Notes under the pieces: generated by a model | What the model saw: the letters and a program-made list of their open reading frames with translations, nothing else | The model's database searches: none | What the model was told of the DNA's origin: nothing | Translations under genes and position numbers: made by a program | Shown: piece by piece, positions 4,447 through 42,700 of the stretch | How the letters are laid out: each line of letters opens with the position of its first letter | How positions within the stretch are numbered: the stretch's first letter is position 1 | From: Candidatus Omnitrophica bacterium UBA6215 | GTDB taxonomy: Bacteria; Omnitrophota; Gorgyraeia; Pluralincolimonadales; Pluralincolimonadaceae | Direction: 5' to 3' | Length of the DNA stretch: 64,000 nucleotides | NCBI GenBank assembly: GCA_002421665.1 | Contig: DISH01000004.1 | Location: 381,900-445,899, forward strand

Positions 4447-4468
4447 CGCAAGGATTATACATTATGAT

Positions 4469-4496: not shown

Positions 4497-4503
4497 CCTA
4501 AAT

Positions 4504-24029: not shown

Positions 24030-24030
24030 T

Positions 24031-24600
24031 ATGATATTGATGATAGATAACTATGATTCTTTCACTTATAATCTCGTCCAGTACTTCGGGGAGATGGGCG
24101 CATCGCTGAAAGTCATCAGGAACGACAAGATATCGCTCAGGGAAATAGCGGGCATGAAACCGGATGGTATAGTGATCTCGCCCGGACCGGGGTTCCCTAA
24201 AGACGCGGGGATCTCGAACTCCGTTATAAAGGAATTTGCAGGAAAGATACCGTTGCTGGGAGTTTGTCTCGGACACCAATGCATAGGCGAAGTGTTCGGG
24301 GGCCGGGTGATCAAAGCAACACGGCCAATGCACGGGAAGACTTCAAAGATACATCACGACGGTAAAGGCATATTCAGGGGCCTGCCGAACCCTTTTGAGG
24401 CTATAAGGTACCATTCGCTTGTGGTCGAGCGCAAGTCCCTGCCGGAGTGCCTGGAAATAACCGCCCAGACCAAGGAAAAAGAGATAATGGGGCTCAAGCA
24501 CGGGAAATATCCGGTTTGGGGGGTGCAATTCCATCCGGAATCCATCCTTACGTCCGGCGGGAAGAAAATGCTGAAAAATTTTATGGAGCTTTCCCGATGA
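24031..24600 (+). CDS. trpG: anthranilate synthase component II (glutamine amidotransferase)
   Basis: [25 protein letters not shown] catalytic Cys, HPES. Confidence 0.9.
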
Positions 24601-25607
24601 TAAGAGAGGCTATCTCCAAACTCGTCAGGTCTGAAGACCTTACAAAAAAAGAGATCGAATTGACCATGGACGAGATCATGACGGGCCAGGCCCTGCCTGC
24701 GCAGATCTCATCGTTCCTTACCGCCATGAGGATGAAAGGCGAGACCATAGACGAGATAGCCGGCGCGGCAGGAGTAATGAGGAAGTATGCGACATATATA
24801 AGGACAAGGCATCCATGCGTCCTTGATACCTGCGGTACGGGAGGGGACGAGTCCCAAACATTCAATGTATCTACCGTCGCAGCTTTTGTTGCAGCCGGGG
24901 CCGGAGTCGCGGTCGCGAAACACGGTAACAAATCGGTCTCGTCAAAATGCGGCAGCGCGGACCTTCTTAACGCCCTTGGTGTAAATATCGACGTAAGCGA
25001 ACATATGGTATCCAGATGTCTCGATGAACTTGGCATAGGTTTCCTTTTCGCGCCGGCATTACATAAGGCAATGCGATATGCCATAGGCCCGCGCAAGGAG
25101 ATAGGCATACGTACCATATTCAATATTTTGGGTCCCCTGACGAACCCTGCGAAGGCCTCTTACCAGCTGCTTGGGGTTTACGATCATAAGCTGACCGAAC
25201 CCATAGCGCGGGCTCTGGGTAAATTGGGTTCCAGGCACGCATTGGTAGTCCACGGCGAGGACGGTCTCGACGAGGTCACGACAACGGATATAACGCAGGT
25301 ATCGGAACTAAAGAATGGGAAGGTAAAGAATTACGAGATCTCCCCTAAGCATTTCGGCATAAAGAAAGCAAAACCTGCAGACTTAAAAGGAGGCGACGCC
25401 GCCTATAATGCAAAGCTGGCGATGTCAATCCTCGGAGGGGAAACAGGCCCCCAATACGATATAGTGATATTTAACGCCGGTTGCGCAATTTATGCCGCAG
25501 ACAGGGCGCAAAGCATAAAAGAAGGCATAGAACTGGCTGGAGAATCCGTCGAGTCCGGAGAAGCCTTGAAAAAACTCGAACAGCTCAAGGAGGTGACTAA
25601 CTCATGA
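24597..25607 (+). CDS. trpD: anthranilate phosphoribosyltransferase
   Basis: MIREAISKL start with an ATGA overlap on trpG. GTGGD motif, KHGN. Confidence 0.9.
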
Positions 25608-26380
25608 TAACCCTCGATGAGATAATAGAACATAAAAAACATAAGTTGGAACGCTTACAGGAAACGCTTTCCCTGCCCGATATCGAAAAGAAAGCCTCAC
25701 CCGTAAAGAACAGGGGTTTTAAAGCCGCGATATCCCGCGGCAACAGGGTGAACTTGGTAGCTGAAATAAAAAAAGCTTCGCCCTCGCACGGCATAATAAG
25801 GCATGATTTTGACCCGGTAAGCATAGCCTCCGTATACAAGGAAAGCGGAGCAAGCGCCCTTTCCATCCTGACGGAGGATAAATATTTCCAGGGCAGCCTG
25901 GAGATACTCTCCAATGTAAGAGATGCGGTAAATCTTCCGGTAATGCGCAAAGACTTCATAATATCGGAATACCAGATATTCGAATCGGCCATTGCGGGCG
26001 CAGACGCGGTTCTCCTTATTGCTGCAGCACTGGACAGGGGTATGCTCAAAGCGCTTTTACATGAGGCATCTTCCCTGGGAATGGAGACCATGGTCGAAGT
26101 CCATGACGAACGCGACCTTGATAAGGCCCTCGGCGCAGGCGCAGGCATAATAGGTATAAACAACCGCAACCTAAGGACCATGGAAGTAGATTTGGCCGCT
26201 ACCATCGAACTTATTCCAAAAATCCCGGATGGTAAAATAACCGTGTCGGAAAGCGGCATAAGGGAGCCTGAGGATATCAGGACCTTGTCCCAATACGGGA
26301 TAAAAGCGGTCCTTGTGGGCACTGCGTTCATGGAGGCGAATGATATTGCCTCAGAGGTCAAACGGGTGATGGATTGGTAA
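25604..26380 (+). CDS. trpC: indole-3-glycerol phosphate synthase
   Basis: VAEIKKASPS.G.I, LSILTEDKYFQGS, NNRNL motifs. Confidence 0.93.
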   Translation: MITLDEIIEHKKHKLERLQETLSLPDIEKKASPVKNRGFKAAISRGNRVNLVAEIKKASPSHGIIRHDFDPVSIASVYKESGASALSILTEDKYFQGSLEILSNVRDAVNLPVMRKDFIISEYQIFESAIAGADAVLLIAAALDRGMLKALLHEASSLGMETMVEVHDERDLDKALGAGAGIIGINNRNLRTMEVDLAATIELIPKIPDGKITVSESGIREPEDIRTLSQYGIKAVLVGTAFMEANDIASEVKRVMDW

Positions 26381-27006
26381 GAGTAAAGATATGCGGGATC
26401 ACTAATCTTACCGACGCCCAAGCCGCGTGCAGGCTTGGGGCCGATGCTATCGGTTTTATATTTACGGAGAGTCCGAGGAGGGTGAACGCCGCAAAAGTAA
26501 GGGCTATATCGGCAAAACTCCCTCCTTATGTCACTACGGTCGGGGTATTCGCCGATGAAAAAATGTCTAATGTCTTAAGGATGGCAAAAAAATGCAGGCT
26601 CGACTGTCTCCAACTGCACGGAGATGAACCGCCGGACTATTGCAGGAAGCTTAAGAAGTATTATAAAATAATAAAAGTGATAAGGGTAAAAGATGCAGGG
26701 AGCATAAACGAGGCAAGGAGTACGGATGCCGATGCGTTCCTGCTTGATGCATATATTAGCGGGAAGAAAGGCGGCACAGGAACGGTTTTTGACTGGAAAT
26801 TGGTTTCCAGGGCTAAAAGATTGGGGAAGCCTGTCATATTATCGGGCGGTTTGAATCCCGGGAACATCCGGAAGGCCGTAAAGCGGTCAAGACCTTACGC
26901 CGTCGATGTCTCCAGCGGCGTGGAAACCCGGCCCGGAAAAAAAGATATAATGCTTATGGGTGATTTCATCAGGAAAGTAAGGTCGGACAACTCAGGAAAG
27001 GAATGA
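26374..27006 (+). CDS. trpF: phosphoribosylanthranilate isomerase
   Basis: MVRVKICGIT...ADAIGFIF...LLD...GGTG. Confidence 0.9.
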   Translation: MVRVKICGITNLTDAQAACRLGADAIGFIFTESPRRVNAAKVRAISAKLPPYVTTVGVFADEKMSNVLRMAKKCRLDCLQLHGDEPPDYCRKLKKYYKIIKVIRVKDAGSINEARSTDADAFLLDAYISGKKGGTGTVFDWKLVSRAKRLGKPVILSGGLNPGNIRKAVKRSRPYAVDVSSGVETRPGKKDIMLMGDFIRKVRSDNSGKE

Positions 27007-28414: not shown

Positions 28415-30400
28415 ATGATCCTGCCGAGCGGTCTGTTCGCCAACAAGGACCCGGTCGCAGAAGAAGGGTTCTCCTGTTCCCGTACTTTCGGAAAAGGAGG
28501 AATACTTTCAAAGGTTTTCCGGGATTATGAGTTCAGGCCGCAGCAGAAAGAGATGGCCGAATCCGTGGAAAGGGCAATCCGGGCAGCCCGCCATCTTATT
28601 GTCGAGGCCGGCACCGGGGTCGGAAAATCGTTCGCATATCTTGTGCCCGCGGCTGATTTTGCTATAAACTCAGGCAGGAAAACCGTCATATCTACCGATA
28701 CCATCAGCCTGCAGGAGCAGCTTGTAAGAAAAGACCTTCCTCTTGTTTCGAGGATACTTCCGGACGAATTTAAGTTCTGCCTGGTGAAGGGCCGGTCCAA
28801 TTATCTTTGCCTTAGGAGGCTCAACAGGGTCTTCTCCTCGAAGAATGACCTCTTCGATTCAAAACAGGAGGCCGGGGAGGTGGGTGATATACTCGCGTGG
28901 TCAAAAGTCACTACTGACGGCTCCCTATCGGACTTTGCCGCTGAACCTTCGCGCAAGGTATGGGAAAAAGTATGTTGCGAACACGATACCTGCCTGAGCA
29001 AGAAATGTCCGCACAGGAACGAATGTTTCCTTATGCAAGCCCGCCGGAACATGCAGGAATCCGACCTGATAGTCGTGAACCATCACCTGTTCTTCTCCGA
29101 CCTGGCTCTGCGCAAATCCGACTGGGCCCTGCTGCCTGATTATTCATGCGTGATATTCGATGAGGCCCATACCATCGAGGATGTCGCGACAGAACATCTG
29201 GGCTTTGAGGTATCTAATTACAAAGTAAAATATCTTTTGGACTCCCTTTACAACCCCTCAAAAAAGAAAGGGTTCCTTGTATCGGTAAAGAATAGCTCTC
29301 TTAAAAGAACGGTAACTGCTGTCCGTGAAGCTTCGGAAAATTTCTTCGCGGATATCTCGGATTGGCTTGGCGCCTACGGCGTAAAAAGGGTAAGGGAACC
29401 GGGTTTTATAGATGACACGCTATCCGGACCCATGAAAGAACTTTACGAAAGCCTTAAAAAGGCCATGAAAGGTTCCCGCTCCAAGGATGAAGAACTGGAT
29501 TTCAGGTACTATATGAATAGGCTGGAAGGATTATCCCAGGAATTGGAGATCTTCATGGACCAGAAATTGGGAGATTATGTTTATTGGTCCGAAGTATCGG
29601 GCAGCAGGTCCCGCAGGACGGCGCTCGATTGCGCTCCGGTCAATATAGCCGCGGCTCTAAGGGAAAACCTTTTCTCGAAGACAGGGACCGTGATCCTTAC
29701 AAGCGCTACCCTGTCAACCGAAGGTAATTTTGAATATATAAAGGGCAGGCTCGGCCTCGATAAGTGCTCGGAAAAACTGCTCGGTTCGCCGTTCGATTAT
29801 GAGAATAACGTCAAGATATACATTCCCAGGAACATGCCGGACCCTAACGATTATGCAAAATACAAGACGGAGGCCGTAGCCAGGATAAAGGACTATGTAT
29901 CAAGGACCGAAGGCAGGGCATTCGTCCTTTTTACCAGTTACAGGTTTATGGACGATGCCTATAATGAGACGGCTGATTTTTTCGAGAATATGGGCATCCC
30001 GATACTTAAACAGGGCGCCGGTTTGCCCAGGACGAAGATGTTGGAAGCCTTCAAGCGGGACAAGGGCTCCGTGATATTCGGGGTGGACTCTTTCTGGACA
30101 GGCGTGGACGTACCCGGTGAAGCCCTCAGCAACGTAATAATAACAAAACTTCCTTTTGCCGTGCCTGACCACCCCATATCGGAAGCCAGGATGGAAAGGA
30201 TAAAGGAGGCGGGGGGAGATCCCTTCAACATGTACAGCCTCCCGCAGGCGATACTCAAGCTCAAACAGGGTTTCGGGAGGCTTATCCGCACGAAACTCGA
30301 TACCGGCATGGTCGTCATACTCGACAGCAGGATACTCCACAAACCTTACGGAAGAAAGTTTTTGTCGGCGCTGCCTAATTGTGAGATAATAATCCAATGA
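28415..30400 (+). CDS. dinG: ATP-dependent DNA helicase, DinG/Rad3 (XPD) family with Fe-S cluster
   Basis: Walker A GTGVGKS, DEAH box (VIFDEAHTIED), four-Cys Fe-S insertion (CCEHDTCLSKKCPHRNEC) and helicase C_2 domain. Confidence 0.85.
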   Translation: MILPSGLFANKDPVAEEGFSCSRTFGKGGILSKVFRDYEFRPQQKEMAESVERAIRAARHLIVEAGTGVGKSFAYLVPAADFAINSGRKTVISTDTISLQEQLVRKDLPLVSRILPDEFKFCLVKGRSNYLCLRRLNRVFSSKNDLFDSKQEAGEVGDILAWSKVTTDGSLSDFAAEPSRKVWEKVCCEHDTCLSKKCPHRNECFLMQARRNMQESDLIVVNHHLFFSDLALRKSDWALLPDYSCVIFDEAHTIEDVATEHLGFEVSNYKVKYLLDSLYNPSKKKGFLVSVKNSSLKRTVTAVREASENFFADISDWLGAYGVKRVREPGFIDDTLSGPMKELYESLKKAMKGSRSKDEELDFRYYMNRLEGLSQELEIFMDQKLGDYVYWSEVSGSRSRRTALDCAPVNIAAALRENLFSKTGTVILTSATLSTEGNFEYIKGRLGLDKCSEKLLGSPFDYENNVKIYIPRNMPDPNDYAKYKTEAVARIKDYVSRTEGRAFVLFTSYRFMDDAYNETADFFENMGIPILKQGAGLPRTKMLEAFKRDKGSVIFGVDSFWTGVDVPGEALSNVIITKLPFAVPDHPISEARMERIKEAGGDPFNMYSLPQAILKLKQGFGRLIRTKLDTGMVVILDSRILHKPYGRKFLSALPNCEIIIQ

Positions 30401-32295
30401 TGAAGAAACACGGCGGGATAATTATAGGGCTCATTTGCGCTGTTGCCATAGCCATACCTTACTTCCTGGGGTTTTTTGAGCTTGCGGAATACCAGGGACT
30501 CGATCTCCTGTTCAAGGTACGCGGGCCAAGGCAGGTCAGCCAGGATATAGTTATCGTGGAAATAGACGACAGGGCAATAAATGATTTCGGCCGGTGGCCG
30601 TGGCCGAGAGGCTATCACGCCGAGTTCCTGGACATGATAGAAGAATTCGAGCCGAAAGCCGTCGTCTTTGATATCCTTTTCAGCGAAAAAGATGCGGAAC
30701 ACCCTGATGATGACATGCAGCTCGCTGCTATGACGAAGAAGCTGGGGAACGTATTCTTCGCCTCGTTCTTTGACTTAAGCAGTGACAAAGTTGCCAAGAG
30801 AAAGAACCTCAGGGCCCATAAGGAAACTATACCTTTCAAGATTCTGGCGGATAACGCCAGGGGATTCGGCTTCGTGAATATACTGGTGGAACCCGACGGG
30901 AAAGTAAGGAAAATACCTCTTTTTATCTCGCGTGACGGGCAGCTCAAACCCTCGATAGACATTCTTGCCGCCTCATATTTCACGGAATCGGACCCTTTTA
31001 AGCTATACGCCCCGACTGACGGAAAAGGGTTTATGTGGATCAATTATCCCGGGTCATTCGACCTTTTCAAGAAAATATCCTTCTCTGATATACCCATATC
31101 CATAGATCAGATGGAAAGAGGGGAGGAACCCGCCTTAAACCTCAATATACTCAAGGGAAAGATAGTCCTCGTTGGTTTAACCTCTACGGCATCAGAGGAT
31201 TACTGGTCGACATCTTTCTCGGCCCTATACCCCGGGGTAGGCATAAGAGCAAGCTCTATCGATACCATGCTCAGGAAAGATTATCTTTACCGCATATTCG
31301 TACCGGAGGTATGCCTTATTATCGTGGCTATAGGCCTGGCATTCGGTATCGTACTTCCGAAACGTACTCCCATGCAGGGGCTCATCTTCTTCTTTGTGAT
31401 TATTGCCGGAGTATCTGCCCTTGCAATAATAGATTTTGCGTTTTTTAACATCTGGATGGATTTTGTGTCGATAATCATCCTTTGCTTAATAGCCTATCCT
31501 GCCATAACCTTGAACCAATTCATAATAACCCGGTTCGAAAAAGGTATGATCGAGAAGGAACTGCAGATAGCCAGCCGTATACAGCAATCCATATTGCCGC
31601 AGGGCCTGCCACAGGTCCCCGGAGTGGATGTCGGCGTCAAATGCATGCCCGCGAAACATGTAGGAGGGGATTTTTACGATTTCATCAAGCTCTTCTATGA
31701 TTTTGTAAAGTTAAAAGAGGACAGGCTGGGGGTAGTAATAGGCGATGTCTCCGGCAAAGGCGTTCCTGCCGCTCTTTTTATGGCAAAATCCATGGCGGAT
31801 TTCAGAGGCATTTCCCATAATTTTAACGAAACTGACCGGGCGCTTTCCGCCATAAACGACAGGCTTACGGAAGAAGGTGTTTCAGGCATGTTCGTGACTA
31901 TGCAGTACCTGATCTATAAACCCCGGGAACGCAAGATAGAATATTCAAACGGAGGGCATAACCCGCTGGTAAAAGTAGACGCCGCAGGCAATGCCTTCCT
32001 CTTGACCCTGTCCGTGGGTACCCCTATAGGCATAATACCGGGATCTGATTTTACCTCAGACGAATTTCCGGTAGCAGCTGGAGAGCTTTTCCTGATGTAT
32101 ACTGACGGCATTTCTGAGGCAAGGGACAAGAACGGCAAGGAGTTTGGCGAAGACAGGATATTGGAAAGCGCCAAAAAATACAGGAATGGCAAAGCGCAGG
32201 AAATTGCAGATAAAATAGTAGCGGATGTCGTAGAATTCAGCAGGGGGATGCCCCAGCACGACGATATGACGGTAATCGCGCTGAAGATATTATGA
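30397..32295 (+). CDS. CHASE2 sensor domain / PP2C (SpoIIE-type) serine phosphatase membrane protein
   Basis: N-terminal TM + CHASE2 (IVIVEIDDRAINDFGRWPWPRGYHAEFL), central multi-TM block, C-terminal PP2C domain (GDFYDF, VVIGDVSGKGVPAALFMA, MYTDGISEA, HDDMTVIAL). Confidence 0.75.
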   Translation: MMKKHGGIIIGLICAVAIAIPYFLGFFELAEYQGLDLLFKVRGPRQVSQDIVIVEIDDRAINDFGRWPWPRGYHAEFLDMIEEFEPKAVVFDILFSEKDAEHPDDDMQLAAMTKKLGNVFFASFFDLSSDKVAKRKNLRAHKETIPFKILADNARGFGFVNILVEPDGKVRKIPLFISRDGQLKPSIDILAASYFTESDPFKLYAPTDGKGFMWINYPGSFDLFKKISFSDIPISIDQMERGEEPALNLNILKGKIVLVGLTSTASEDYWSTSFSALYPGVGIRASSIDTMLRKDYLYRIFVPEVCLIIVAIGLAFGIVLPKRTPMQGLIFFFVIIAGVSALAIIDFAFFNIWMDFVSIIILCLIAYPAITLNQFIITRFEKGMIEKELQIASRIQQSILPQGLPQVPGVDVGVKCMPAKHVGGDFYDFIKLFYDFVKLKEDRLGVVIGDVSGKGVPAALFMAKSMADFRGISHNFNETDRALSAINDRLTEEGVSGMFVTMQYLIYKPRERKIEYSNGGHNPLVKVDAAGNAFLLTLSVGTPIGIIPGSDFTSDEFPVAAGELFLMYTDGISEARDKNGKEFGEDRILESAKKYRNGKAQEIADKIVADVVEFSRGMPQHDDMTVIALKIL

Positions 32296-32808
32296 GAGAT
32301 GCCTTCTTTTTATCAAACGCCTCGCGCCAAGAACGGATCCGCCCGCGACAAAAAGAATTGTGCTGATCGGCTCGGGGACGGAAGTGGGGGAGCCCGCGAT
32401 ATTGAACCAGGTCGAACCTTCACCTGAATCAAGGACCTGGGAAGACCCTATCCTAAAATAATACCAATCGGCGTCAATTGTCCATTTACCCGCGTTCGAA
32501 GGGTCGGACCAGTCGTAAGTACCCGACAAGTCTATCCAGTATGTTTGCTTGAGCCCGTAGCTGCTATCTTCCGCTTTTAGCGAAGAACCCAGGTACCAAT
32601 CTGATTCAACCCTTGATGTCCAATAACCTTCCGGAGCTTCGGGAAGTTTAACATATAAATAGGGAATCTCCCCGAGCTTAAAATCCCAGTTAGGTTCGGT
32701 AGCCATCTCGCTCTTAACCGGATAGATCACTATCCCGCTGTCGGCGAAAGATATGCAGGGGAAAAGAAAAAACATAACCGCTACTGCGCTTATCAAGATC
32801 TTATTCAT
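32290..32808 (-). CDS. small secreted aromatic-rich protein with C-terminal PEP-CTERM sorting signal
   Basis: Signal peptide. C-terminus VPEP-ISTILFVAGGSVLGA-RRLIKRR matches PEP, a hydrophobic span and an Arg-rich tail. Mature part is W/Y/D/S-rich. Confidence 0.6.
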   Translation of the reverse strand: MNKILISAVAVMFFLFPCISFADSGIVIYPVKSEMATEPNWDFKLGEIPYLYVKLPEAPEGYWTSRVESDWYLGSSLKAEDSSYGLKQTYWIDLSGTYDWSDPSNAGKWTIDADWYYFRIGSSQVLDSGEGSTWFNIAGSPTSVPEPISTILFVAGGSVLGARRLIKRRHLS

Positions 32809-32865
32809 TCAAGGCCTCATTTATTGGTATGAAATATACTGATATAGTAGGCTATAAATTGCGGA

Positions 32866-32890
32866 ATGTCAAGTTATTTTACCTTGACAT
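32866..32890. promoter_or_regulatory. palindromic operator-like site ATGTCAAG-(9 nt)-CTTGACAT overlapping the -35 box. A third TGTCAA half-site lies at 32897-32902.
   Basis: Perfect 8-bp inverted repeat read directly from the sequence, in the divergent intergenic region between the PEP-CTERM gene and the TPR-barrel gene. Confidence 0.45.
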
Positions 32891-32912
32891 AATATATGTC
32901 AAATGATATACT
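32884..32912 (+). promoter_or_regulatory. sigma70 promoter TTGACA, 17 nt spacer, TATACT, driving the TPR-barrel / giant protein / SurA-N-like cassette
   Basis: TTGACA at 32884-32889 and TATACT at 32907-32912, ~75 nt upstream of the ATG at 32986. Confidence 0.5.
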
Positions 32913-32985
32913 TATCACATTGTAAATCAAACTTCTGATATCTTCTTTAAAAACAAACCTAAGTTAACCAAAAGGGGTTCCCGTA

Positions 32986-34503
32986 ATGCCGGTAAGGTCC
33001 AAGTCTACGGTGGTAGTTTTGGTAATTTTGTCAACGCTTTTTTCCATTATCCCTCTACAACAGGCCTGTTGCGAAACAAATCCCGACATAGAACAAGGTG
33101 TAAAACTTTACAGGCAGGAAAATTTTGATGAAGCTGTGCCCATATTACAAAAGGCCAGGAAAGAAAACCCCGATTCCTCGCTGGCCGCGTATTACCTGGG
33201 TATTACTTACAAGCAGCTTCAGGATTACAGGCAGGCCAGATCACAGCTCATTGACGCCGTCACGCTTACTCCCCGTATAAAAGAAGCTTTGGTCGAGCTG
33301 ATAGATGTAATGTACCAGCTGGGGGATTTCAAGGGAGCGAAAGAATATATTGAAATTGCAGAGAGGGAAAATATCAAACCTGCGCAGGTTGCTTTCCTTA
33401 AAGGCCTTGTCCTCCTGAAAGACGGAGAGGCAGCCGATGCCATAACAGCTTTCGAACAGGCAAAAGGCCTGGATAACTCCTTAACCCAGGCCGCTGATTA
33501 CCAAATCGGCATCGCGAATTTAAAAGAAAAGAATTATAAGGACGCCAAGAAGGTTTTCCAGGAGATAATAATACTCGATCCTAATTCCGACCTCGCGGGC
33601 CTGTCATATGAATATATGGATGCCCTGAAGCGCAAGGAGGAGGCCGAGAGGCCGTTCAGGGCCACGCTTAACGTCTCGGGCCAATACGACACTAATGTAT
33701 TGCTGAAGCCGGGAGACGATACCGTAGCTACCGGGATAACCAATGAAAGCGACTGGAGGGAAGTAACTAATTTCATGGGCCAATACAGGCAGAAGATCGG
33801 AGAAAAATTCGGCATAGACAGCCAGTATTCGATGTACTGGGCCCACCAGAACAAGATCGGCGCGTACGATGTCATGAGCCATACCGTGACGGTAACGCCC
33901 AACTATTACATAAAGAACGGGACTATCGGTGTGGCTGCCGGCTACAACTACACTGATGTCGGAGAATCCAAATATATGACTACTATTACCGCCAGCCCGG
34001 TCGTTAACTACGTTATCAGGAATAACCATATGCTTCAGGCGAATTTCAAGTACCAGAAGAAAGATTTCGCAAGGGAATCTTTCATTGACGATGAGAACAG
34101 GGATTCCAATGATTATGGCGGAGGTTTGGGCTATTTCTTTTTCTTTGCCCAGAACAAGGGTTTCTTCGGGCTGCACTATGGTTTAAATAAGGAAGATACC
34201 AAAGGGCGGAACTGGGAGTATCTCGGCAACAGGATCACCGCCACGGCATTGATACCTTTCCTTAAGAAATTCAGATTGAGTCTCGCCGGCGATGTTTTAC
34301 TCCAGGATTTCTCCAACACGAACAGTATATTTAATGTTAAACGTAATGATGAGACCTATACGGCATCTTCCATGCTCGGTTATACATTTTGGAAAGAGGC
34401 GGAACTGCAGTTCAGGTATACGTACATAAAGGACCATTCAAATATAAAAGTATATGATTATGACAGAAGCATCTACAGCGTTGGGATCGAGTATAAATTT
34501 TAA
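32986..34503 (+). CDS. outer-membrane protein with N-terminal TPR domain and C-terminal beta-barrel (Slam/DUF560-like architecture)
   Basis: Signal peptide, ~190 aa of TPR-like repeats (AAYYLGITYKQLQDYRQA..., VAFLKGLVLLKDGEAADAITAFEQA...), then ~290 aa of amphipathic beta strands ending in the canonical OMP beta-signal (IYSVGIEYKF, alternating hydrophobics, terminal Phe). Confidence 0.6.
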   Translation: MPVRSKSTVVVLVILSTLFSIIPLQQACCETNPDIEQGVKLYRQENFDEAVPILQKARKENPDSSLAAYYLGITYKQLQDYRQARSQLIDAVTLTPRIKEALVELIDVMYQLGDFKGAKEYIEIAERENIKPAQVAFLKGLVLLKDGEAADAITAFEQAKGLDNSLTQAADYQIGIANLKEKNYKDAKKVFQEIIILDPNSDLAGLSYEYMDALKRKEEAERPFRATLNVSGQYDTNVLLKPGDDTVATGITNESDWREVTNFMGQYRQKIGEKFGIDSQYSMYWAHQNKIGAYDVMSHTVTVTPNYYIKNGTIGVAAGYNYTDVGESKYMTTITASPVVNYVIRNNHMLQANFKYQKKDFARESFIDDENRDSNDYGGGLGYFFFFAQNKGFFGLHYGLNKEDTKGRNWEYLGNRITATALIPFLKKFRLSLAGDVLLQDFSNTNSIFNVKRNDETYTASSMLGYTFWKEAELQFRYTYIKDHSNIKVYDYDRSIYSVGIEYKF

Positions 34504-34520
34504 CAGAGGAGACGCCTGAT

Positions 34521-37500
34521 ATGAAGAAATTTTGCGTAAAACTACTGGCCCTGGTAACGGTAATGGGAGGGATATTCCTTACCTGTTCACCGTATTCTCT
34601 CGCGGATGTTATCGGAAAAATATCCGCTACCGAGGGAAGGGTTGACCTGTTGAAATCCGGCGGCGATACCGCCTCCGAAGTCAGGGTCGGTGATTGCGTA
34701 TCCTCAGGGGACATACTAAGGACCAAGAGCGGATCCAAGGCGGAGATCGCCTTTACCGATACGTCCGTAGTCAGGTTATCCGAAAACACCAGGCTGGAGA
34801 TCACAGATTACGGTTTTGGTCCAGGCGGAAAAAGAGCTGACGCTGCCCTTTTTCTTGATAGGGGCAAGATCAGAGCTATACTCTCAAGATCAGCGGAAGG
34901 GAGCTTCGTGATCAACACCCCTAACGCTGCCGGAGCGGTAAAAGGTACGGATATAGTGGCGATATACCAGAGGTCTTCGACCTCAATCGCCGCGCTCAAC
35001 GGCAAAGTTTTGGTCTCAGGAATGTCACCCTCAGGTAAACCGGTTGAACTGACAAGCGGTCAAACATCCGTAATCTCCGGAGAGACAGCTCCAAGCGCGC
35101 CCAGAATACTGCTTTCCATGGAGATTAAAGCGCACGAATCAGATACGGGAATATCCAAAGGATCTATGGCGGCGGAAAAATCTTCCGATGATAAGATGAC
35201 TGCTGAAGGTTATAGCGCACCCGATGGTATGAAAGCCGTAGTAACAAAAACCGCCGGCGGCGTAAGGATAAAGAACCGCGGATCAATAACGTGGCATGAC
35301 GCCAGAGAAAATGAAGTCCTCGCCGCGGGTGATTCCGTAGAAACTAAGGATAACGGAAAGATAGAGATAAGACTTGAGAACGGTAACGTAATAACATTGC
35401 AGCAGAACTCCAGCCTTATAATTCAAAAACTTTCATCCGACAGCAAGACCGGCAATTACGAGAACCTTCTTGAGTCCGGCGGCGGAAAACTCCGGGCCCA
35501 GGTACAGAAGATAAAGGGCAATTCGAAGTTCGAGGTCAAGACCCCTAATGCAGTTGCTTGCGTTCGCGGTACGATAATGTACCTGAACATATTACCTGGC
35601 CTGACAAACTCATATTTCGAAGAAGGCAACGGAACGCTTCGAAATCTAATCTCGGGGACAGTAAAAGACGTCCCTATCGGAACGGGCGCTGCCGCGGACG
35701 GCAATGGTAATATATCGGACCCGGTCCCGCCAAGCGATGACCAGAAATCGCAATGGCACCAGGGTTGGGATGTCGGCGGTGAAGCCGAAGGCTATTCAGC
35801 TCCTTCCGGGGACTTGGGTCAGGGCGGCGACTCAGACAACAACAGCGGAGATACAGGTTTCCAGAACGTCGTTTTCGACGAAAAACCGGTAACGGATATT
35901 ATCGGCACTACGGAGAGCGGGGGCGGTCCGGGCGGCAGCGAAGGCGAAGGGGGCATAACTAACCCCTATATAACAGGAACTTCATCCGGCAGTTTCGGGT
36001 TCGTCGAACCGGACGAGTATAATAATTTTGACGCTGTTCTCTCCAGCAACACCGTATTATCTTCGCCGTGGGCCGGGCAACTCGATCTTCACGTAAGCGG
36101 CGAATTCATGAGTCCGGGATACAGGATATTCGAAGGCAATATCACCGCTGCGAGCGTTGATGGAGGTACGTCCTTCGGATGGGTAGGCGGCATAATGCAC
36201 AGTTGGGAAGGAATATTATCTTCTATATATATAGATCCTTCCGGCAGGGCAGGCAACCTGTTCGGGTATTTATCCGGTACGAACACCGTAGAAACCGGGA
36301 CCGGATCCTATTACGGCGATTTCTCGGGCAGCGGTGATATTTTTGTTATCCAGATGGCTCAATTAGAGGCTGGCATCGAGTATCCGGTAGAATACGGTGA
36401 AGGATATGGTGACCTGCGCTTGGCTTTCAATAACGGGAACGGCTTGTTCTACGCTGATTTCGACAGGCAGCTGGCCAGGATAGAGGGACAGGATTGGGGG
36501 ATCTGGAGGGATGCTTACCGCGGGAGTTATTATAATCCGGATAATTTGAATGAATGGATCGGAAATGCAGGCGGCCGTTACGGAGAAAAAGGTTATTTCT
36601 TCGCGACTGTCGAAGGCATTGACGATCTTGAGGGCGGAGTCAGGATGGACATGACCGGCGCCTATCTGGATATGTATACGCTTGGGGCATACTACGGCTC
36701 TATTCTCGCCGGCTATGGAGAAGGAACGGAAGGAATCGGGTTGGGCGGATATACTGAAGAAGCCCTTACCTCCAGCGCAATACACGGAAACTACAGTTAT
36801 TCGGGACAATTAAGCGGCATTTTAGGCACTACAGGCTCGCTTTGGTCTGGCAGTCCGTTCTATCTGACATCCATAGGCAATCTTGAGGATGAGTACGATG
36901 GCGAATTTGATAATTTTATATGGTATACCGATTTCATAAGCACCGACAACGATAACGAAAGATATACGGCCTACTCGGCGGAAGAAGGAATAGGCTCTTA
37001 CTACGGCACTACCTCAGGCGTAGGCAAAGACAACACCATGAAGGGGTTCAGCAGGTTCATCTATATAGATCCCTCCGGGTATGCCGGAGTATTCAAGGGA
37101 AGTGTTGACGGCGCTTATTCGCAGGCAATAGGCATGTATATTTTTGACGGAAAGGCCGCAAGAGATACCTCGGTGGATCCAGTGTTTGTAAGCCTGTCCC
37201 CGGAAGCCCTCAACTATTCCATATGGCTTAATTCCGGCGAAGGTAACCTTGAGGGTTATTATTCGGATGGAGGGCGCGTATATGGTTATGACAACCTCTA
37301 TTCAGCCTCAATCGCCGATTTCGGGAACGGGACAGCCCAGAACTGGGGTATTTATAACCAGCGGATAATCGGACAATCCTACATGGAACTCGCGGACGAC
37401 TTTTCCGCTAAGATGGGCGGCAAAGACAGTTTTGGTTGTTATAATCCTACGATAATGCACTATAATACATATAATTCCGGCGACGGGGCCTCTTATAGCT

Positions 37501-40500
37501 GCGAATATTCGGAAAATAACAGGTACGGGTATTCTTACAGGTACGAACCGGGCCCGGACACATATAAGTATACCTATACTTATTATTACGCGGACGGCAC
37601 AACATACACGAACACATGCATTTATGACAGCGGCTGGAATTACCTTTCCGGCGACGGGGTATATGATACTTGGGATACTTCATCTTCTTTAGCGGACCTG
37701 TTAAGCGCGGCACCGGAAGGCTACAGCCTTTCATCTGAAAGCTCATATTCTTATGCCGAAAATGATTACGGCTTTTGGATAGCCGATGTGAACGCTTCCG
37801 GAAGCGATTGGTTTGACGGGACTCTTAACGGCGCGTTCATTACATATACAAAGATGGGCCTGATGCAGGGTGATCTCACCGGTTCATATACAGATGATAC
37901 CGGCGGGTGGATAGCCGCCGGCTCAGGCACTTGGAATGGCAACCGGCTTACCATGAGCGGCATGTGGGGTGAGGACACAAGTAGTCTGTACGAGAACAGT
38001 TACGGATATCCGTCCTTAGCCGGTGAAGAATACGGGCTTCTCGGCTCTACGGTCGAGGAGTGGTGGAATAAAACCTCTTTCCCTGTATTGGCGATGGGCA
38101 GATACTATTCTTACGGCACGGACGATCAGCCTATAATCTGGATAACACCGTTCAACAGCTATAACGCCGAGATGGATAACCATACCTCTCTCGACGGTTC
38201 AGCGTTCTACGGTCTTACCGCGGGCATATGGAAAGACGGCTTGATGTCGGACGCAAAGGCTGTTGCAATATACGCTGCCCCGGATGGAAGTATGGGTATA
38301 ATCAAGGGAAACCTTGGCGGAGAATACTATCCGGGTCTGGATATGTGGATGGCAACCGGATCTTTGTCCGCCCTGCAAAAAAGCGGAGAATCAATAGACC
38401 CGGCATCCCTTTACGAGAGTATAACTACCTCGGATATGCCGTATTTATACGCCGGGGGTTCGATTGATGGAGCGGTCGTTTACGGTGAATCTTCCGACGG
38501 ATACTTATATTCAGTCGACGAAGGTCAGTGGGGCATATTTGATTTCAAGACCGGCGGCAACTATAACGACGAATGGGTTGAATCCAAAGAGAAGGGCCTT
38601 GCCTTCGGATTCACGGACGGTCTTTACGGGCCTTCCATGCTCCTGACATCGACCGACGCGTCCGTCGGTGACGGTACCATCGCCGGCACTCTTTCCGGAT
38701 CTTGCATAGACCTTCTCGAAGGAACTATAAGCAAGCTGAACGGCGATATCCGCGGAATTTACGACAGCGATAATAATACCTGGATCGCCGCGGCCATCGG
38801 CGAATGGGAAAAGAAATTACTCGCCTACAGCGGTGTCGTAATGGAAGGCGGGTTCGGTTATTTTTACGGCGAAAACGAAGGACCTTATCTGGATGACGGC
38901 GGGCTTGACGCGATAATGGGCGGCTCCGACGACCTCTTTGACGGTTCAGCCGAGATCTCGATAGTCGGGAACGCGTGGAACCCGGACTACAATGAGGATT
39001 GGACGGGCGACGATAAGCTGTGGGCAGGCGATTTCTTCATAACTACCGACGATAACGCCGCAGCCACGGGTACGATAGGAGGTACCAGCCTGAACAACAG
39101 CTTCAAAGGCGCTTTGCTTGGTCTGTACATCCGCCAGACGCAGGACGGTTACAAAGCAGGATATATAACTTCTTCCGACGCCTTCGGGAACCGCGACTTC
39201 CTTTCGGGGAATTTCTATCCGTCATTATCAATGTTCAGCGCCGAAGGCAGCCTAACGGCTTTCATGGATACTCCTACGGAATTCACGCCGGAAGATATAC
39301 TTTTTGGCAATGAATCCGCTTTGCTGAGCGATGACTTCTATGACCCGATCGTCGGGGACCTCAACGGCGACCTTTACGGTGAGGACCTCCAGATAGCGGA
39401 CCAACAGTGGGGAGTCTGGCGCGCGGGATGCGGCGGTTGGCTCGATTCCGTCCCGGCCGGCAATTGGAATTCTTACATAGCCGAAAGCTTTGAAGACCAA
39501 TACGGGGAATATTCGTTCCCGTATTATTCACTCATCTATATCGACGGAACCACTACCGCGGACAACGGGCTTGAGGCCGTTATACACGGTTACGACCTCG
39601 GTATGACATACCTAAGCGAGGCTTCGGGGTTGATGGCCGGCGATTATGATACCGGCGAGATGAGATGGGAAGGCCTTAGTTTGGGGACTTGGGTTGAGAA
39701 GGAATTAACTCTCAGCGGACTCGCCTCCGGGGGAATAAGAGCCGCCGGAGACTGGGATAACTGGTTTGACCCGGGCGACAGTTATGAAGACTTCTCCGGA
39801 GAATTCTCCGGTATAATAGGATCTACGCAGACCGGATGGCAGGACGGAAGTTTTAAGGCCGTAGCAATGGGTGATTATGCGATCAACGAGTCCGCCAATT
39901 CATACCTGCTCAACGCTGAAATGGGAAGTTTTAATGCACGCGAGATATCTCCGGTTACCCTCGACGGGGAAGGTGCTTTCTACGGGTTTGCCCACGCGGC
40001 TGTCGGAGATTCTGCCGATGGCAGGCTGACGGATACCGCTTCGGGATTGAGGCTGGCCGCCATATATATAGCTTCTAACGGGACCGGCGGCTATAATGCG
40101 GGAGTGCTAAGGGGCGGGCTTGACATGGATCTAGTGGAGATCCCCTACGACGGTGAAGTCGGCATGTGGATAGCCGAAGGCTACCTGACCCCTTACGCAA
40201 TGGAAACCGATATCGGCATCTCTCCGGAAGAACTACCGGATTATATATCCTGGGACTGGGAAGTGCTCGGTGCTTCGGGTGTCGGCTCGTTCTCAAACGG
40301 CGGCGCCATCCAGGCCGATTACTTTACCGGGGACACGATGTCCATAGAAGGCTACGACCAGTGGGGGATAATGCAGGCTGCCCTTACCGGACAAACATCC
40401 TCGGTCGTAGATTCGGATTGGAGATTGGCCTTGGGAGGCGCTTCTTATACCGACGATTCGCATGAGATTGCGGACGGTTATTTCCTTATCTCGGCCGGCG

Positions 40501-41126
40501 GAGATTCCTGGTCGAACAACGTATTTGACGGGACCTTCAGGGGCGTATACTTGAGCGAGATAGACGAAAATACCTTTAACGTCGGAAAGATAGAAGGTGA
40601 TGTCGTAGGCAATTACCAGCAGGTTGAAGGGGTAGATACCGTCTTCCAGGCACAGATGCTCGGAGAATGGGTAGATCTTGCGGAATTGAGCACGGATGTG
40701 CTTGGATTCAATAACGATGCGTTAGCCGAGATGGTCCAGATACCCGTCACGGAAACCTATACAGCGCTTCTGCAGGGTGCCGGCGGATTCGGACCCGCCG
40801 GGGATATCGGGGCTATAACATCCAATATGGACATAAGCTTCTATGCCCAGCAGGCAACCGACCTCAGCGGCATATGGGCTGCCCTGATAAACGGGAACTA
40901 CTCCGGGTATACCGGAAGCGACAATTGGTCTGTCAATTATTCCAATAACGGCGTTAACGCCACGCTTACGGGTACGCAGTGGAATGACGGACAATGGCTC
41001 GCGAACGTATCCGGAAATAACGGAAATTCTACATTTACCGGACAGGCGGGCGGCACCTATACCGGCACAGACAGCGGTACTTTTGATGGTGCAGGCGCCG
41101 GGACATGGAACACCCCGACTCCGTAA
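34521..41126 (+). CDS. giant (2201 aa) secreted protein with tandem N-terminal FecR domains and a ~1700-aa Gly/Tyr/Asp/Ser/Thr/Trp-rich degenerate-repeat region
   Basis: Sec signal (cleavage after SLA). First FecR-like domain at ~aa 35-160 (...FVINTPNAAGAVKGTDI) and second at ~aa 245-360 (...FEVKTPNAVACVRGTIMYL). The rest has extreme composition, almost no K or R, and recurring IYIDPSG.G..G and (Q/D)WG(I/V)(W/F) motifs. SD GAGGAG 7 nt upstream, 17 nt after the upstream gene. Confidence 0.7.
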   Translation: MKKFCVKLLALVTVMGGIFLTCSPYSLADVIGKISATEGRVDLLKSGGDTASEVRVGDCVSSGDILRTKSGSKAEIAFTDTSVVRLSENTRLEITDYGFGPGGKRADAALFLDRGKIRAILSRSAEGSFVINTPNAAGAVKGTDIVAIYQRSSTSIAALNGKVLVSGMSPSGKPVELTSGQTSVISGETAPSAPRILLSMEIKAHESDTGISKGSMAAEKSSDDKMTAEGYSAPDGMKAVVTKTAGGVRIKNRGSITWHDARENEVLAAGDSVETKDNGKIEIRLENGNVITLQQNSSLIIQKLSSDSKTGNYENLLESGGGKLRAQVQKIKGNSKFEVKTPNAVACVRGTIMYLNILPGLTNSYFEEGNGTLRNLISGTVKDVPIGTGAAADGNGNISDPVPPSDDQKSQWHQGWDVGGEAEGYSAPSGDLGQGGDSDNNSGDTGFQNVVFDEKPVTDIIGTTESGGGPGGSEGEGGITNPYITGTSSGSFGFVEPDEYNNFDAVLSSNTVLSSPWAGQLDLHVSGEFMSPGYRIFEGNITAASVDGGTSFGWVGGIMHSWEGILSSIYIDPSGRAGNLFGYLSGTNTVETGTGSYYGDFSGSGDIFVIQMAQLEAGIEYPVEYGEGYGDLRLAFNNGNGLFYADFDRQLARIEGQDWGIWRDAYRGSYYNPDNLNEWIGNAGGRYGEKGYFFATVEGIDDLEGGVRMDMTGAYLDMYTLGAYYGSILAGYGEGTEGIGLGGYTEEALTSSAIHGNYSYSGQLSGILGTTGSLWSGSPFYLTSIGNLEDEYDGEFDNFIWYTDFISTDNDNERYTAYSAEEGIGSYYGTTSGVGKDNTMKGFSRFIYIDPSGYAGVFKGSVDGAYSQAIGMYIFDGKAARDTSVDPVFVSLSPEALNYSIWLNSGEGNLEGYYSDGGRVYGYDNLYSASIADFGNGTAQNWGIYNQRIIGQSYMELADDFSAKMGGKDSFGCYNPTIMHYNTYNSGDGASYSCEYSENNRYGYSYRYEPGPDTYKYTYTYYYADGTTYTNTCIYDSGWNYLSGDGVYDTWDTSSSLADLLSAAPEGYSLSSESSYSYAENDYGFWIADVNASGSDWFDGTLNGAFITYTKMGLMQGDLTGSYTDDTGGWIAAGSGTWNGNRLTMSGMWGEDTSSLYENSYGYPSLAGEEYGLLGSTVEEWWNKTSFPVLAMGRYYSYGTDDQPIIWITPFNSYNAEMDNHTSLDGSAFYGLTAGIWKDGLMSDAKAVAIYAAPDGSMGIIKGNLGGEYYPGLDMWMATGSLSALQKSGESIDPASLYESITTSDMPYLYAGGSIDGAVVYGESSDGYLYSVDEGQWGIFDFKTGGNYNDEWVESKEKGLAFGFTDGLYGPSMLLTSTDASVGDGTIAGTLSGSCIDLLEGTISKLNGDIRGIYDSDNNTWIAAAIGEWEKKLLAYSGVVMEGGFGYFYGENEGPYLDDGGLDAIMGGSDDLFDGSAEISIVGNAWNPDYNEDWTGDDKLWAGDFFITTDDNAAATGTIGGTSLNNSFKGALLGLYIRQTQDGYKAGYITSSDAFGNRDFLSGNFYPSLSMFSAEGSLTAFMDTPTEFTPEDILFGNESALLSDDFYDPIVGDLNGDLYGEDLQIADQQWGVWRAGCGGWLDSVPAGNWNSYIAESFEDQYGEYSFPYYSLIYIDGTTTADNGLEAVIHGYDLGMTYLSEASGLMAGDYDTGEMRWEGLSLGTWVEKELTLSGLASGGIRAAGDWDNWFDPGDSYEDFSGEFSGIIGSTQTGWQDGSFKAVAMGDYAINESANSYLLNAEMGSFNAREISPVTLDGEGAFYGFAHAAVGDSADGRLTDTASGLRLAAIYIASNGTGGYNAGVLRGGLDMDLVEIPYDGEVGMWIAEGYLTPYAMETDIGISPEELPDYISWDWEVLGASGVGSFSNGGAIQADYFTGDTMSIEGYDQWGIMQAALTGQTSSVVDSDWRLALGGASYTDDSHEIADGYFLISAGGDSWSNNVFDGTFRGVYLSEIDENTFNVGKIEGDVVGNYQQVEGVDTVFQAQMLGEWVDLAELSTDVLGFNNDALAEMVQIPVTETYTALLQGAGGFGPAGDIGAITSNMDISFYAQQATDLSGIWAALINGNYSGYTGSDNWSVNYSNNGVNATLTGTQWNDGQWLANVSGNNGNSTFTGQAGGTYTGTDSGTFDGAGAGTWNTPTP
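36140..41090 (+). repeat. in-frame degenerate protein-level tandem repeat (about 6 units of ~250-350 aa) inside the giant ORF
   Basis: Module A copies: SIYIDPSGRAGNLFGY, FIYIDPSGYAGVFKGS, AIYAAPDGSMGIIKGN, SLIYIDGTTTADNG, AAIYIASNGTGGYNAG. Module B copies: QDWGIWRDAYRG, QNWGIYNQRIIG, GQWGIFDFKTGG, QQWGVWRAGCGG, DQWGIMQAALTG, LSGIWAALINGN. They alternate at roughly regular spacing. Confidence 0.4.
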
Positions 41127-41416
41127 TGATACGTTATATAGCCCTGGTGTCAATTCTGGCTATTTTATTTCCCGGTTGCGGGAAGCCGGCCGCTAATCCG
41201 GCTTCCGCGCAGCCCGCGCCAAGGGTGCTCGCGACGGTTAACGGCGAACCTATATCCGATAAAGACCTGAAACTTTCCCTTGCCATACGCCTTATGGATG
41301 ATCCAGATTTCAAGGTAACTCCTTCCACTAAGAACGAACAGATACAGATGATCATCGACGAACGCCTGGAACTGCAGCGCAAGGACAGGGCTTCTTCGGA
41401 CATTAAGATATTCTGA
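41126..41416 (+). CDS. small lipoprotein/periplasmic protein with SurA N-terminal-like chaperone motif
   Basis: Start codon overlaps the giant ORF stop (TAATG). Signal MIRYIALVSILAILFPGC followed by VLATVNGEPISDKDLKLSLAIRL..., resembling the SurA/PpiD N-terminal domain. Only ~96 aa. Confidence 0.45.
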   Translation: MIRYIALVSILAILFPGCGKPAANPASAQPAPRVLATVNGEPISDKDLKLSLAIRLMDDPDFKVTPSTKNEQIQMIIDERLELQRKDRASSDIKIF

Positions 41417-41444: not shown

Positions 41445-41499
41445 ATTGACTAAGACCTTACTCTGTGATAAACTTTATTTTTATTCAATCAAAATAAAG
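41445..41499 (+). promoter_or_regulatory. putative internal promoter (TTGACT, 17 nt spacer, TAAACT) followed by a perfect 9-bp A/T inverted repeat CTTTATTTT-(9 nt)-AAAATAAAG directly upstream of trpB
   Basis: TTGACT at 41445-41450. TAAACT at 41468-41473. Inverted-repeat arms at 41473-41481 and 41491-41499. trpB SD AAAGAGG at 41496-41502. Confidence 0.35.
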
Positions 41500-41509
41500 A
41501 GGTTATGAC

Positions 41510-42700
41510 GTGAAACTGCCCGATAAGAAAGGCCATTTCGGCGTTTTCGGAGGAAAGTATGTCCCGGAAACCCTGATGGCGGCCCTGGAAGAGCTTGAGG
41601 CGGAATATTCCGCCGCTAAAAACAACAGAAGGTTTGCCGAGAAATTCCGTTATTACCTGGAAGCATACGCCGGCAGGCCGAGCGGTCTTTATTTTGCCGA
41701 AAAATTGACCAAAACCCTTAAGGGCCCAAAAATATACCTGAAGAGGGAAGACCTGCTGCATACCGGTTCCCATAAAATAAACAATACCCTGGGCCAAGGT
41801 CTGCTTACCGTACGCATGGGGAAGAAAAGGATAATTGCCGAAACCGGCGCCGGACAGCACGGCGTAGCCACCGCGACCGTAGCGGCTCTCTTCGACCTTG
41901 ATTGCGAGGTATTTATGGGAGAAGAAGACATTCGCCGGCAGGCCCTTAACGTCTTCAGGATGAAACTCCTGGGCGCGAAAGTCACTCCGGTCACAAGCGG
42001 CAGCAAGACGCTGAAGGACGCTATGAACGAAACGATGAGGGACTGGGTCACTAATGTGCGCGCCACCCATTATTGCATCGGATCGGTCGCCGGGCCGCAT
42101 CCGTTCCCAATGATGGTAAGGGATTTCCAGTCGGTTATCGGAAAAGAGACGCGGCGCCAAATACTAAAAGCAGAAGGCAGGCTCCCCGACTATCTTATTG
42201 CCTGCGTGGGAGGCGGGTCTAATTCCATGGGGCTCTTCTATGATTTCCTTGACGACAGGAAGGTTAATTTTATAGGGGTTGAGGCCGCGGGCAAGGGCTT
42301 GAATACAGGCCTGCACGCAGCCACTCTGGAAAAGGGCGATATCGGCGTGCTCCACGGCAGTAAGAGTTATCTGCTGCAAGACGACTTTGGACAGATAAAG
42401 ATAGCGCACTCGGTATCCGCCGGGCTGGATTATCCCGGAGTAGGCCCGGAACACTCATTTTTCAAGGACGCGGGCAGGGCAAAGTATGTATCGGCCACGG
42501 ACACGGAGGCATTGGAAGCTTTCCGTCTTCTTTCAGAGACTGAAGGTATAATACCGGCCCTTGAGTCGTCGCACGCCATAGCTTACCTCATAAAAGCGGC
42601 CAAAAAGATGAAAAAAAGCGACCTTGCGGTAGTCTGCTTGTCGGGCAGGGGCGATAAGGACGTGGACATGGTCTCGCAGGTCCTCGCAGACAAAATATGA
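41510..42700 (+). CDS. trpB: tryptophan synthase beta chain
   Basis: GTG start. [14 protein letters not shown] and [12 protein letters not shown]-lysine motif. GGGSNS. Confidence 0.95.

Follow-up and report, generated by a model that had tools for sequence, protein, structure and literature searches.

The 177 bp at 32809-32985 of the window (the whole 64-kb stretch of DNA that was analysed) form the entire intergenic gap between a 172-aa gene on the minus strand and a 505-aa gene on the plus strand, and contain a sigma-70-like promoter whose -35 hexamer lies within one arm of a perfect inverted repeat. The question raised by this locus is what accounts for the symmetry, which a preliminary description of the sequence had attributed to a repressor operator. 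The explanation favoured here is that the flagged palindrome most probably consists of the -35 boxes of two divergent sigma-70 promoters placed back to back, and that the gap would be an ordinary, well-conserved bidirectional promoter region. The rightward and leftward promoters are designated P(+) and P(-), and the genes around them are the following:

28415-30400, plus strand: gene for a DinG/YoaA-like helicase
30397-32295, plus strand: gene for a CHASE2-PP2C (SpoIIE) membrane sensor
32290-32808, minus strand: gene for a PEP-CTERM sorting-domain protein of 172 aa (TIGR02595, 18.2 bits against a cut-off of 16), assigned to P(-)
32986-34503, plus strand: gene for a TPR protein with a C-terminal beta-barrel-like part of outer-membrane type
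34521-41126, plus strand: gene for a FecR-domain giant protein of 2201 aa, starting 17 nt past the TPR gene
32986-41126, plus strand: operon of the TPR-barrel and FecR-giant genes, assigned to P(+)

The elements of P(+) and of the leader that would follow it are arranged as follows:

32884-32889, plus strand: -35 hexamer TTGACA of P(+), in the right arm of the flagged palindrome and in the left arm of a second, 19-bp palindrome
32904-32912, plus strand: extended -10 element of P(+), TG-a-TATACT, with TG at 32904-32905 and TATACT at 32907-32912, after a 17-nt spacer
32919-32985, plus strand: predicted 5' UTR of the operon
32944-32960, plus strand: conserved linear motif TCTTTAAAAACAAACCT, unique in the window
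32972-32977, plus strand: AAGGGG ribosome-binding site

P(+) matches the sigma-70 consensus at 11 of 12 positions and has the TGn extension as well. A scan for TTGACA-N16-18-TATAAT found six matches of 11/12 in the 64 kb, five of them intergenic although intergenic DNA makes up 1,748 bp (2.7%) of the window; the organism therefore uses canonical promoters, and P(+), which had been ranked among the best sigma-70-like promoters in the window, ties for the best. The arms, the TTGACA, the spacer, the TATACT and a third TGTCAA were all found where the preliminary description had placed them. Like a canonical sigma-70 (RpoD) extended -10 promoter, P(+) combines TTGACA, a 17-nt spacer and TGnTATACT about 66 nt before a start codon; it differs from such promoters in no structural respect, and it is unusually near consensus, as are the other intergenic promoters of its host.

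The TPR and PEP-CTERM proteins served to retrieve orthologous loci, and the relatives that carry these loci are annotated as Candidatus Omnitrophota. The P(+) architecture is found upstream of the orthologous TPR-barrel gene, with conserved position and spacing, in 13 lineages (the window, L026, L018, L027, L029, L001, L007, L016, L025, L019, L024, L020 and L022), across which TPR-protein identity to the window ranges from 63% to 91%. The -35 hexamer is TTGAC(A/T) in all 13, with TTGAC unchanged throughout the 10 lineages of alignment A2; the -10 hexamer, TAnAnT, stands 17 nt away, or 16 nt in L024, and TGn comes before it in all lineages but L022. Variation among relatives falls in mid-spacer positions and in the DNA on either side. 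Because its position, its spacing and its TGn motif are conserved in 13 lineages, P(+) is almost certainly the real promoter of the TPR-barrel and FecR-giant operon, and its sequence would place it in every respect among extended -10 sigma-70 promoters. Transcription is predicted to start near 32919, giving an unstructured leader some 66 nt long, and to cover the genes of the TPR/beta-barrel protein and the FecR-domain giant. That this promoter controls the cassette, as had been claimed, is very probable: the two genes are co-oriented with 17 nt between them, the promoter is conserved in the 13 lineages, and the gene pair stands behind it in all relatives with a sufficiently long contig.

On the other strand, a second set of promoter elements begins with the left arm of this palindrome:

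32866-32873 and 32883-32890: arms ATGTCAAG and CTTGACAT of the flagged palindrome, perfect over 8 bp, with a 9-nt gap
32867-32872, minus strand: -35 hexamer TTGACA of P(-), identical with the left arm (site S1) of the flagged palindrome
32844-32849, minus strand: -10 hexamer TACTAT of P(-), 17 nt from the -35 hexamer, the pair scoring 10/12
32873-32883, no strand assigned: A/T-rich 11-nt stretch GTTATTTTACC, between both -35 hexamers

The -10 hexamer of P(-) lies 35 nt upstream of the start codon of the PEP-CTERM gene, and a GAGG ribosome-binding site precedes the ATG at 32808. Transcription from P(-) is predicted to start near 32837, with a leader of about 29 nt leading to the PEP-CTERM gene. 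The palindrome itself is longer than had been recorded: it extends to arms of 11 nt, with one mismatch, around a 3-nt centre.

The presence of the left arm follows that of the divergent gene. All five lineages that have the divergent PEP-CTERM gene (the window, L026, L018, L027/28 and L029) show an inverted TTGACA, in each case precisely 11 nt before the P(+) hexamer, and none of the eight lineages that lack the gene does, all eight of which have P(+) without the left arm; the five fall into two clades only, so that the comparison holds fewer than five independent events. TGTCAA-N11-TTGACA occurs once per locus in 12 loci (the five lineages and same-strain copies), every one of them with the divergent PEP-CTERM gene, and in 0 of 17 other loci. 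L001 and L007 have neither the PEP-CTERM gene nor the left arm, and retain P(+). A search with the single PEP-CTERM sequence returned only itself and P0122; further orthologues were found by a profile search.

The -10 hexamer of P(-) is conserved along with its -35 hexamer. TACTAT stands at 17 nt in both the window and L026, though their spacers match at just 8 of 17 positions, and TATAAT stands at 16 nt in L018, L027 and L029, whose spacers differ. In the latter three lineages, a sister clade, the symmetry is confined to the bare 6-bp hexamers, which is predicted by two -35 boxes and not by a longer operator. The claim that the 8-bp inverted repeat is a repressor operator is thus set aside in favour of a second promoter, with the left arm as the -35 hexamer of P(-) in five of five lineages against none of eight. 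The length of the GTTATTTTACC stretch is fixed in all five divergent-gene lineages, and its sequence is the same at 10 of 11 positions between the window and L026 and at 9 to 11 of 11 inside the sister clade; this A/T-rich DNA may be an UP-like element shared by the two promoters.

The 177-bp region would accordingly be read as a compact bidirectional control region with two back-to-back promoters of sigma-70 (RpoD) type, whose start sites and strengths are predicted from their elements. The flagged 8-bp inverted repeat would be two consensus -35 boxes set back to back across a fixed A/T-rich gap of 11 nt, and the protein that accounts for the symmetry would be RNA polymerase holoenzyme, with no repressor. 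Back-to-back divergent promoters are a class described for the divergent operons of E. coli. By its sequence, the pair found here appears to belong to that class: the promoters are on opposite strands, their upstream regions abut, and they share A/T-rich DNA, with predicted start sites about 82 bp apart, as in back-to-back pairs. The difference from the E. coli pairs is that here both -35 hexamers are perfect consensus sequences at a fixed distance of 11 nt, which makes them a perfect palindrome.

To our knowledge the Omnitrophota are an uncultured phylum in which no promoters have been mapped, and nothing specific was found in the literature on the cassette or on Omnitrophota promoters. The locus provides a well-supported promoter pair for this phylum, in which the canonical TTGACA/TGnTATAAT rules apply, and may assist annotation as well as attempts to express the conserved CHASE2-PP2C / TPR-barrel / FecR-giant cassette in a heterologous host. 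The case also advises caution: a perfect palindrome that contains a -35 hexamer beside a divergent gene should be read first as two promoters, not as an operator.

A different arrangement of the same genes is found in L002, where the PEP-CTERM gene is in forward orientation, with 23 nt between it and the TPR gene downstream, and one promoter, TTTACA-17-TATCAT, precedes them. The PEP-CTERM and TPR transcription units are therefore functionally linked. Judged from these gene orders, the PEP-CTERM protein is co-expressed with the cassette, either in a single operon or from a shared bidirectional region.

Two back-to-back promoters do not require everything that is found here. A third copy of the hexamer, in the spacer of P(+), forms a palindrome that had been overlooked:

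32895-32902, no strand assigned: S3, TATGTCAA, within the P(+) spacer, its TGTCAA at 32897-32902
32884-32902: perfect 19-bp palindrome TTGACATA-ATA-TATGTCAA, formed by the -35 box of P(+) (site S2) and S3

The region contacted by RNA polymerase is thus covered by two perfect 8-bp dyads, S1/S2 and S2/S3. To judge the value of such symmetry, the region (30% GC) was compared with its dinucleotide shuffles: 7% of them contained a perfect 8+8 inverted repeat whose loop was no longer than 12 nt, so that one such repeat alone is weak evidence, and 0.045% contained at least two copies of ATGTCAA. Of 14 TTGACAT heptamers in the window, three lie within 37 bp here; another intergenic copy, at 61603, stands without a partner and outside any promoter context. 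TGTCAA-N11-TTGACA with at most one mismatch is unique in the window, against an expectation of 0.05 copies.

S3 was found only in the window and L026, and is absent from the 11 other lineages that keep P(+); likewise, the window/L026 lineage is the only one in which the full heptamer TTGACAT is common to all three sites. The two loci have diverged considerably around it: nucleotide identity is 80.8% over the PP2C gene, 51-56% at third codon positions and 55% in the intergenic DNA to the left. Nevertheless, 32866-32912 is identical at 45 of 47 positions and the 5' UTR at 45 of 49. At the seven otherwise variable positions of the P(+) spacer, the window and L026 agree at all seven, whereas the control pairs L018/L027 and L018/L029, of equal neutral divergence, agree at three of seven each (Fisher p ~0.015, computed from those counts). 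This identity of the spacer core suggests constraint on S3, with the reservation that L026 ends inside the UTR and that a recent recombination tract could also make the block identical. The chances that S3 is functional or neutral appear about evenly balanced; it would be a lineage-specific addition, unneeded by the two-promoter explanation.

If S3 has a function, it may be as half of an operator. The palindrome TTGACATA-ATA-TATGTCAA is tentatively a binding site, confined to the window and L026, for a putative dimeric helix-turn-helix repressor encoded elsewhere in the genome, which when bound would exclude RNA polymerase from P(+); this is possible, though clearly less likely than not. Its merits are a perfect 8+8 dyad with a 3-nt centre that covers the -35 hexamer and spacer of P(+), the 45/47 block in L026 set against 51-56% and 55% in the DNA around it, the spacer core that agrees fully where both control pairs do not, and the three TTGACAT sites peculiar to this lineage. 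Against these stand its absence from 11 lineages that keep the promoter, the lack of a second copy of TTGACATA-N3-TATGTCAA within the window at up to three mismatches, the recombination tract that could explain the identity of a sequence ending in the UTR, and the fact that the conserved AAATG motif supplies, with its AA, two of the seven S3 bases, which leaves fewer to arise. Nor was a regulator gene found among the 39 window proteins scanned for domains: the sole helix-turn-helix match was a RodZ-type protein at 18-746, in a scan that included every gene from 12714 to 50144. This agrees with the earlier remark that no obvious regulator gene is adjacent, none having been found around the site.

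S1, S2 and S3 together make up two overlapping, mutually exclusive palindromes that would share the -35 box of P(+). It is conceivable, if rather doubtful, that the window/L026 lineage acquired this array of three TTGACAT sites (S1 and S3 inverted, S2 direct) as a putative switch between expression of the PEP-CTERM gene and of the TPR-barrel and FecR-giant genes, operated either by a putative dimeric regulator or by RNA polymerase competing at a secondary reverse promoter.

Such a reverse promoter, weak and on the minus strand, would have S3 as its -35 hexamer (TTGACA, 32902-32897), a 15-nt spacer and TAAAAT (32881-32876) as its -10 hexamer. It would overlap P(+) fully, and a polymerase occupying it would be a competitor of P(+) and would contribute leftward transcripts of the PEP-CTERM gene. 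The consensus -35 and the 5/6 -10 are both present in L026 as well, and P(-) in this lineage has the weaker -10, TACTAT, in comparison with TATAAT of the sister clade. However, spacers of 15 nt are strongly suboptimal for sigma-70 promoters, the candidate was not among the results of the promoter scan, which allowed 16-18 nt, and its TAAAAT belongs to an A/T-rich tract whose conservation has other reasons and which L001 and L007, both without S3, have as well. It is an improbable explanation of S3.

The original proposal for the flagged palindrome, that ATGTCAAG-N9-CTTGACAT (32866-32890) is the operator of a repressor that occludes the promoter of the giant-protein operon, now seems just as unlikely. 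In its favour, the arms are perfect over 8 bp, or 11 bp with one mismatch; the gap of 11 nt between the hexamers is invariant in five lineages, which could reflect a factor that binds TGTCAA-N11-TTGACA, and by sequence the site of such a factor and a pair of -35 boxes look identical. The 8-bp symmetry and the third heptamer of the window/L026 lineage are also more than two promoters require. What weighs against it is that the left arm occurs only where a divergent gene needs a -35 hexamer and is accompanied by a conserved -10 hexamer at 16-17 nt, that the sister clade has no symmetry past the hexamers, that eight lineages keep P(+) without the left arm, and that the proteins scanned include no regulator and the window no other copy of the motif. 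The search for TGTCAAG-N9-CTTGACA that had been recommended to define a regulon returned, within the 64-kb window, only chance-level matches with three mismatches besides the site itself.

A single palindromic operator between divergent promoters has precedent in the bio operon of E. coli with its repressor BirA. In both bioA/bioBFCD with BirA and tetR/tetA of Tn10 with TetR, one such operator serves divergent promoters. The present locus resembles these systems in having dyad symmetry between or over divergent promoters, and the 19 bp of S2/S3 are a typical operator size. It differs in that no regulator gene is adjacent, no additional sites are present in the window, and the symmetry that is shared across clades is that of the -35 hexamers. 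Furthermore, the tet repressor is the product of one of the divergent genes, whereas the divergent gene here encodes an exported protein with a PEP-CTERM sorting signal.

The PEP-CTERM protein and the CHASE2-PP2C sensor had been suggested as possible regulators of the cassette, and neither would bind its DNA directly: the former is exported, and the latter has Pfam matches to the CHASE2 and SpoIIE families only and to no DNA-binding family. The sensor, if it acts on the cassette, would act indirectly. A CHASE2-domain sensor encoded beside a FecR-domain protein is a known association, found in the 'BiofilmReg' operon of Burkholderia and in P. aeruginosa (PMC5192318). The likeness is that of a CHASE2 membrane sensor gene next to the gene of a secreted FecR-domain protein; in contrast to those systems, the output domain here is a PP2C phosphatase, with no histidine kinase and no response regulator, and the FecR protein is a giant of 2201 aa accompanied by a TPR-barrel protein. 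By analogy, the adjacency of CHASE2 sensor and FecR protein suggests that the cassette is a signalling and surface module in which the signal passes between proteins; this concerns the cassette and has no bearing on the promoter as such.

Control of the cassette through the palindrome is less likely than either post-translational control by the CHASE2-PP2C sensor or an action of the conserved motif TCTTTAAAAACAAACCT in the 5' UTR. A structured leader or riboswitch was considered for this UTR and rejected: the leader has no Rfam match at E <= 1, no consensus secondary structure was found among relatives, and the leader itself is unstructured, folding less well than its own shuffles (z = +1.5).

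Several other explanations were considered for the inverted repeats. An invertible, phase-variable switch, in which they would bound a stretch of DNA whose inversion turns the promoter or the PEP-CTERM gene around, might be suspected from the orientation of that gene, which varies by clade (forward in L002, divergent in the window), but it is effectively refuted by the single orientation in all same-strain contigs (one gene order, in the places shown or grouped as similar, in 20 contigs from several samples with an identical TPR protein; identity over the 177-bp intergenic region in all six same-strain contigs retrieved) and by the lack of a recombinase gene nearby, while the repeats enclose just 3-9 nt and the 570-bp gene segment is flanked by no significant inverted repeats, only by 8-nt A/T-rich matches of a kind that occurs 20 times in 1.2 kb. 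A box of LexA/SOS type was rejected: recA, recX and the DinG-like helicase are encoded in the window, but the region upstream of recA has no related palindrome. The spacing does not appear to fit the operator consensus of CRP/FNR, PadR (ATGT-N8-ACAT), the pho box, CtsR or the Cheo box.

Comparison of the window with its closest relatives reveals a recombination boundary that, to judge from the alignments, falls exactly at this promoter region and is a less ordinary feature than the promoter. As far as the stop codon of the PP2C gene, L007 and the window share 99.25% identity; from 32874 onward they share only 80%. For L001 the identity to the window is 90.6% on the left, 72-80% over the TPR gene and the part of the giant gene that encodes its N-terminus, and again 87-89% from about 39328. 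Compared with each other, L007 and L001 show about 91% identity throughout; therefore it is the window that carries a divergent, imported allele. That allele would comprise the promoter, the genes of the PEP-CTERM and TPR-barrel proteins and the N-terminal portion of the giant gene.

The stop codon of the CHASE2-PP2C (SpoIIE) membrane sensor gene is a sharp recombination boundary when the window is compared with two related loci, L007 and L001 (window 32296 to about 39330 against L007 1-6131 and L001 7876-14610). To the left of this boundary the window and L007 share 99.25% identity, which falls to only 80% from 32874 onward. For L001 the identity is 90.6% left of the boundary, drops to 72-80% over the TPR-barrel gene and the stretch that encodes the N-terminal part of the FecR-domain giant protein, and is back at 89% from about 39328. 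L007 and L001 themselves are about 91% identical, uniformly along their length. It follows that the surface cassette of the window is a replaced, divergent allele. Such a replacement suggests either diversifying selection or strain-level exchange of the cassette.

Among the relatives, three states of the PEP-CTERM gene can be told apart: divergent, forward, and absent. It is divergent from the TPR-barrel gene in the window (32290-32808), L026, L018, L027 and L029; in L002 (4851-5366) it is forward, 23 nt upstream of the TPR-barrel gene; and seven lineages, the closest relatives among them, have no PEP-CTERM gene (L001, L007, L016, L019, L020, L024 and L025). The ortholog in L026 was called as two overlapping ORFs of 68 and 122 amino acids (107-678, minus-strand view), which is either a frameshift (pseudogene) or an assembly error in this 1.6-kb contig. 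In L022, a divergent fragment of an exosortase gene of the EpsH family (582-1040) takes the place of the CHASE2-PP2C gene ahead of the TPR-barrel gene. Because the TPR-barrel gene of L022 adjoins this exosortase gene fragment, the cassette is linked to the PEP-CTERM/exosortase sorting system.

Two kinds of sequence element were found in the predicted leaders of the TPR-barrel genes:
Window 32944-32960: linear 5' UTR motif TCTTTAAAAACAAACCT, with core CTTTAAAAA
L019 3455-3500, L024 1985-2030, L022 1200-1245 and L023 1-30: possible leader element of the second clade

The linear motif TCTTTAAAAACAAACCT, which occurs once in the window, is kept in nine lineages (the window, L026, L001, L007, L016, L018, L025, L027 and L029), between which the surrounding leader diverges. 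The leader that carries it is unstructured; possible roles for the motif are to enhance translation or to bind a protein or an sRNA. It is not present in the second clade of leaders (L019, L022, L023 and L024). The leader of L019 contains the inverted repeat GTAACCTATTTACTTAGGGTTAC, followed by GYAAAAAAGGAC immediately ahead of the start codon; L022, L023 and L024 keep only the 3' arm of the repeat, plus GYAAAAAAGGAC. The inverted repeat and GYAAAAAAGGAC may together be a different leader element.

The FecR-domain giant protein (window 34521-41126 and L001 9533-14917, with L012 and L014 also among the loci compared) varies strongly in length among lineages, with 2201, 1794, 2340, 2247, 2188 and 2231 amino acids. 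Broken ORFs of 903 or 876 amino acids were called for it in some assemblies of the same strain. Repeat-driven variation is one likely source of these differences, and faulty assembly is the other. The final 22 nt of the giant gene also belong to a 103-amino acid ORF (41105-41416), which takes up the greater part of the 383-bp gap that precedes trpB.

The tryptophan operon of the window is split into trpE-G-D-C-F (22551-27006) and trpB-A (41510-43494), about 14.5 kb apart, with genes for PilZ, an M48 peptidase, a DinG-like helicase, CHASE2-PP2C, PEP-CTERM, TPR-barrel and FecR-domain giant proteins in between. The order and sizes of ORFs in L001 match the window across this region. The trpB gene has a putative promoter of its own:
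41446-41474: TTGACT-17-TGaTAAACT

A further divergent pair of genes encodes a LigT-like phosphoesterase (minus strand) and a solute-binding protein (plus strand). In the 57 bp of intergenic DNA between the two (4447-4503), promoter-like sites on both strands overlap:
Within 4447-4503, plus strand: TTGACT-16-TATAAT, with TGn (extended -10 element)
Within 4447-4503, minus strand: TTGATT-17-TATAAT
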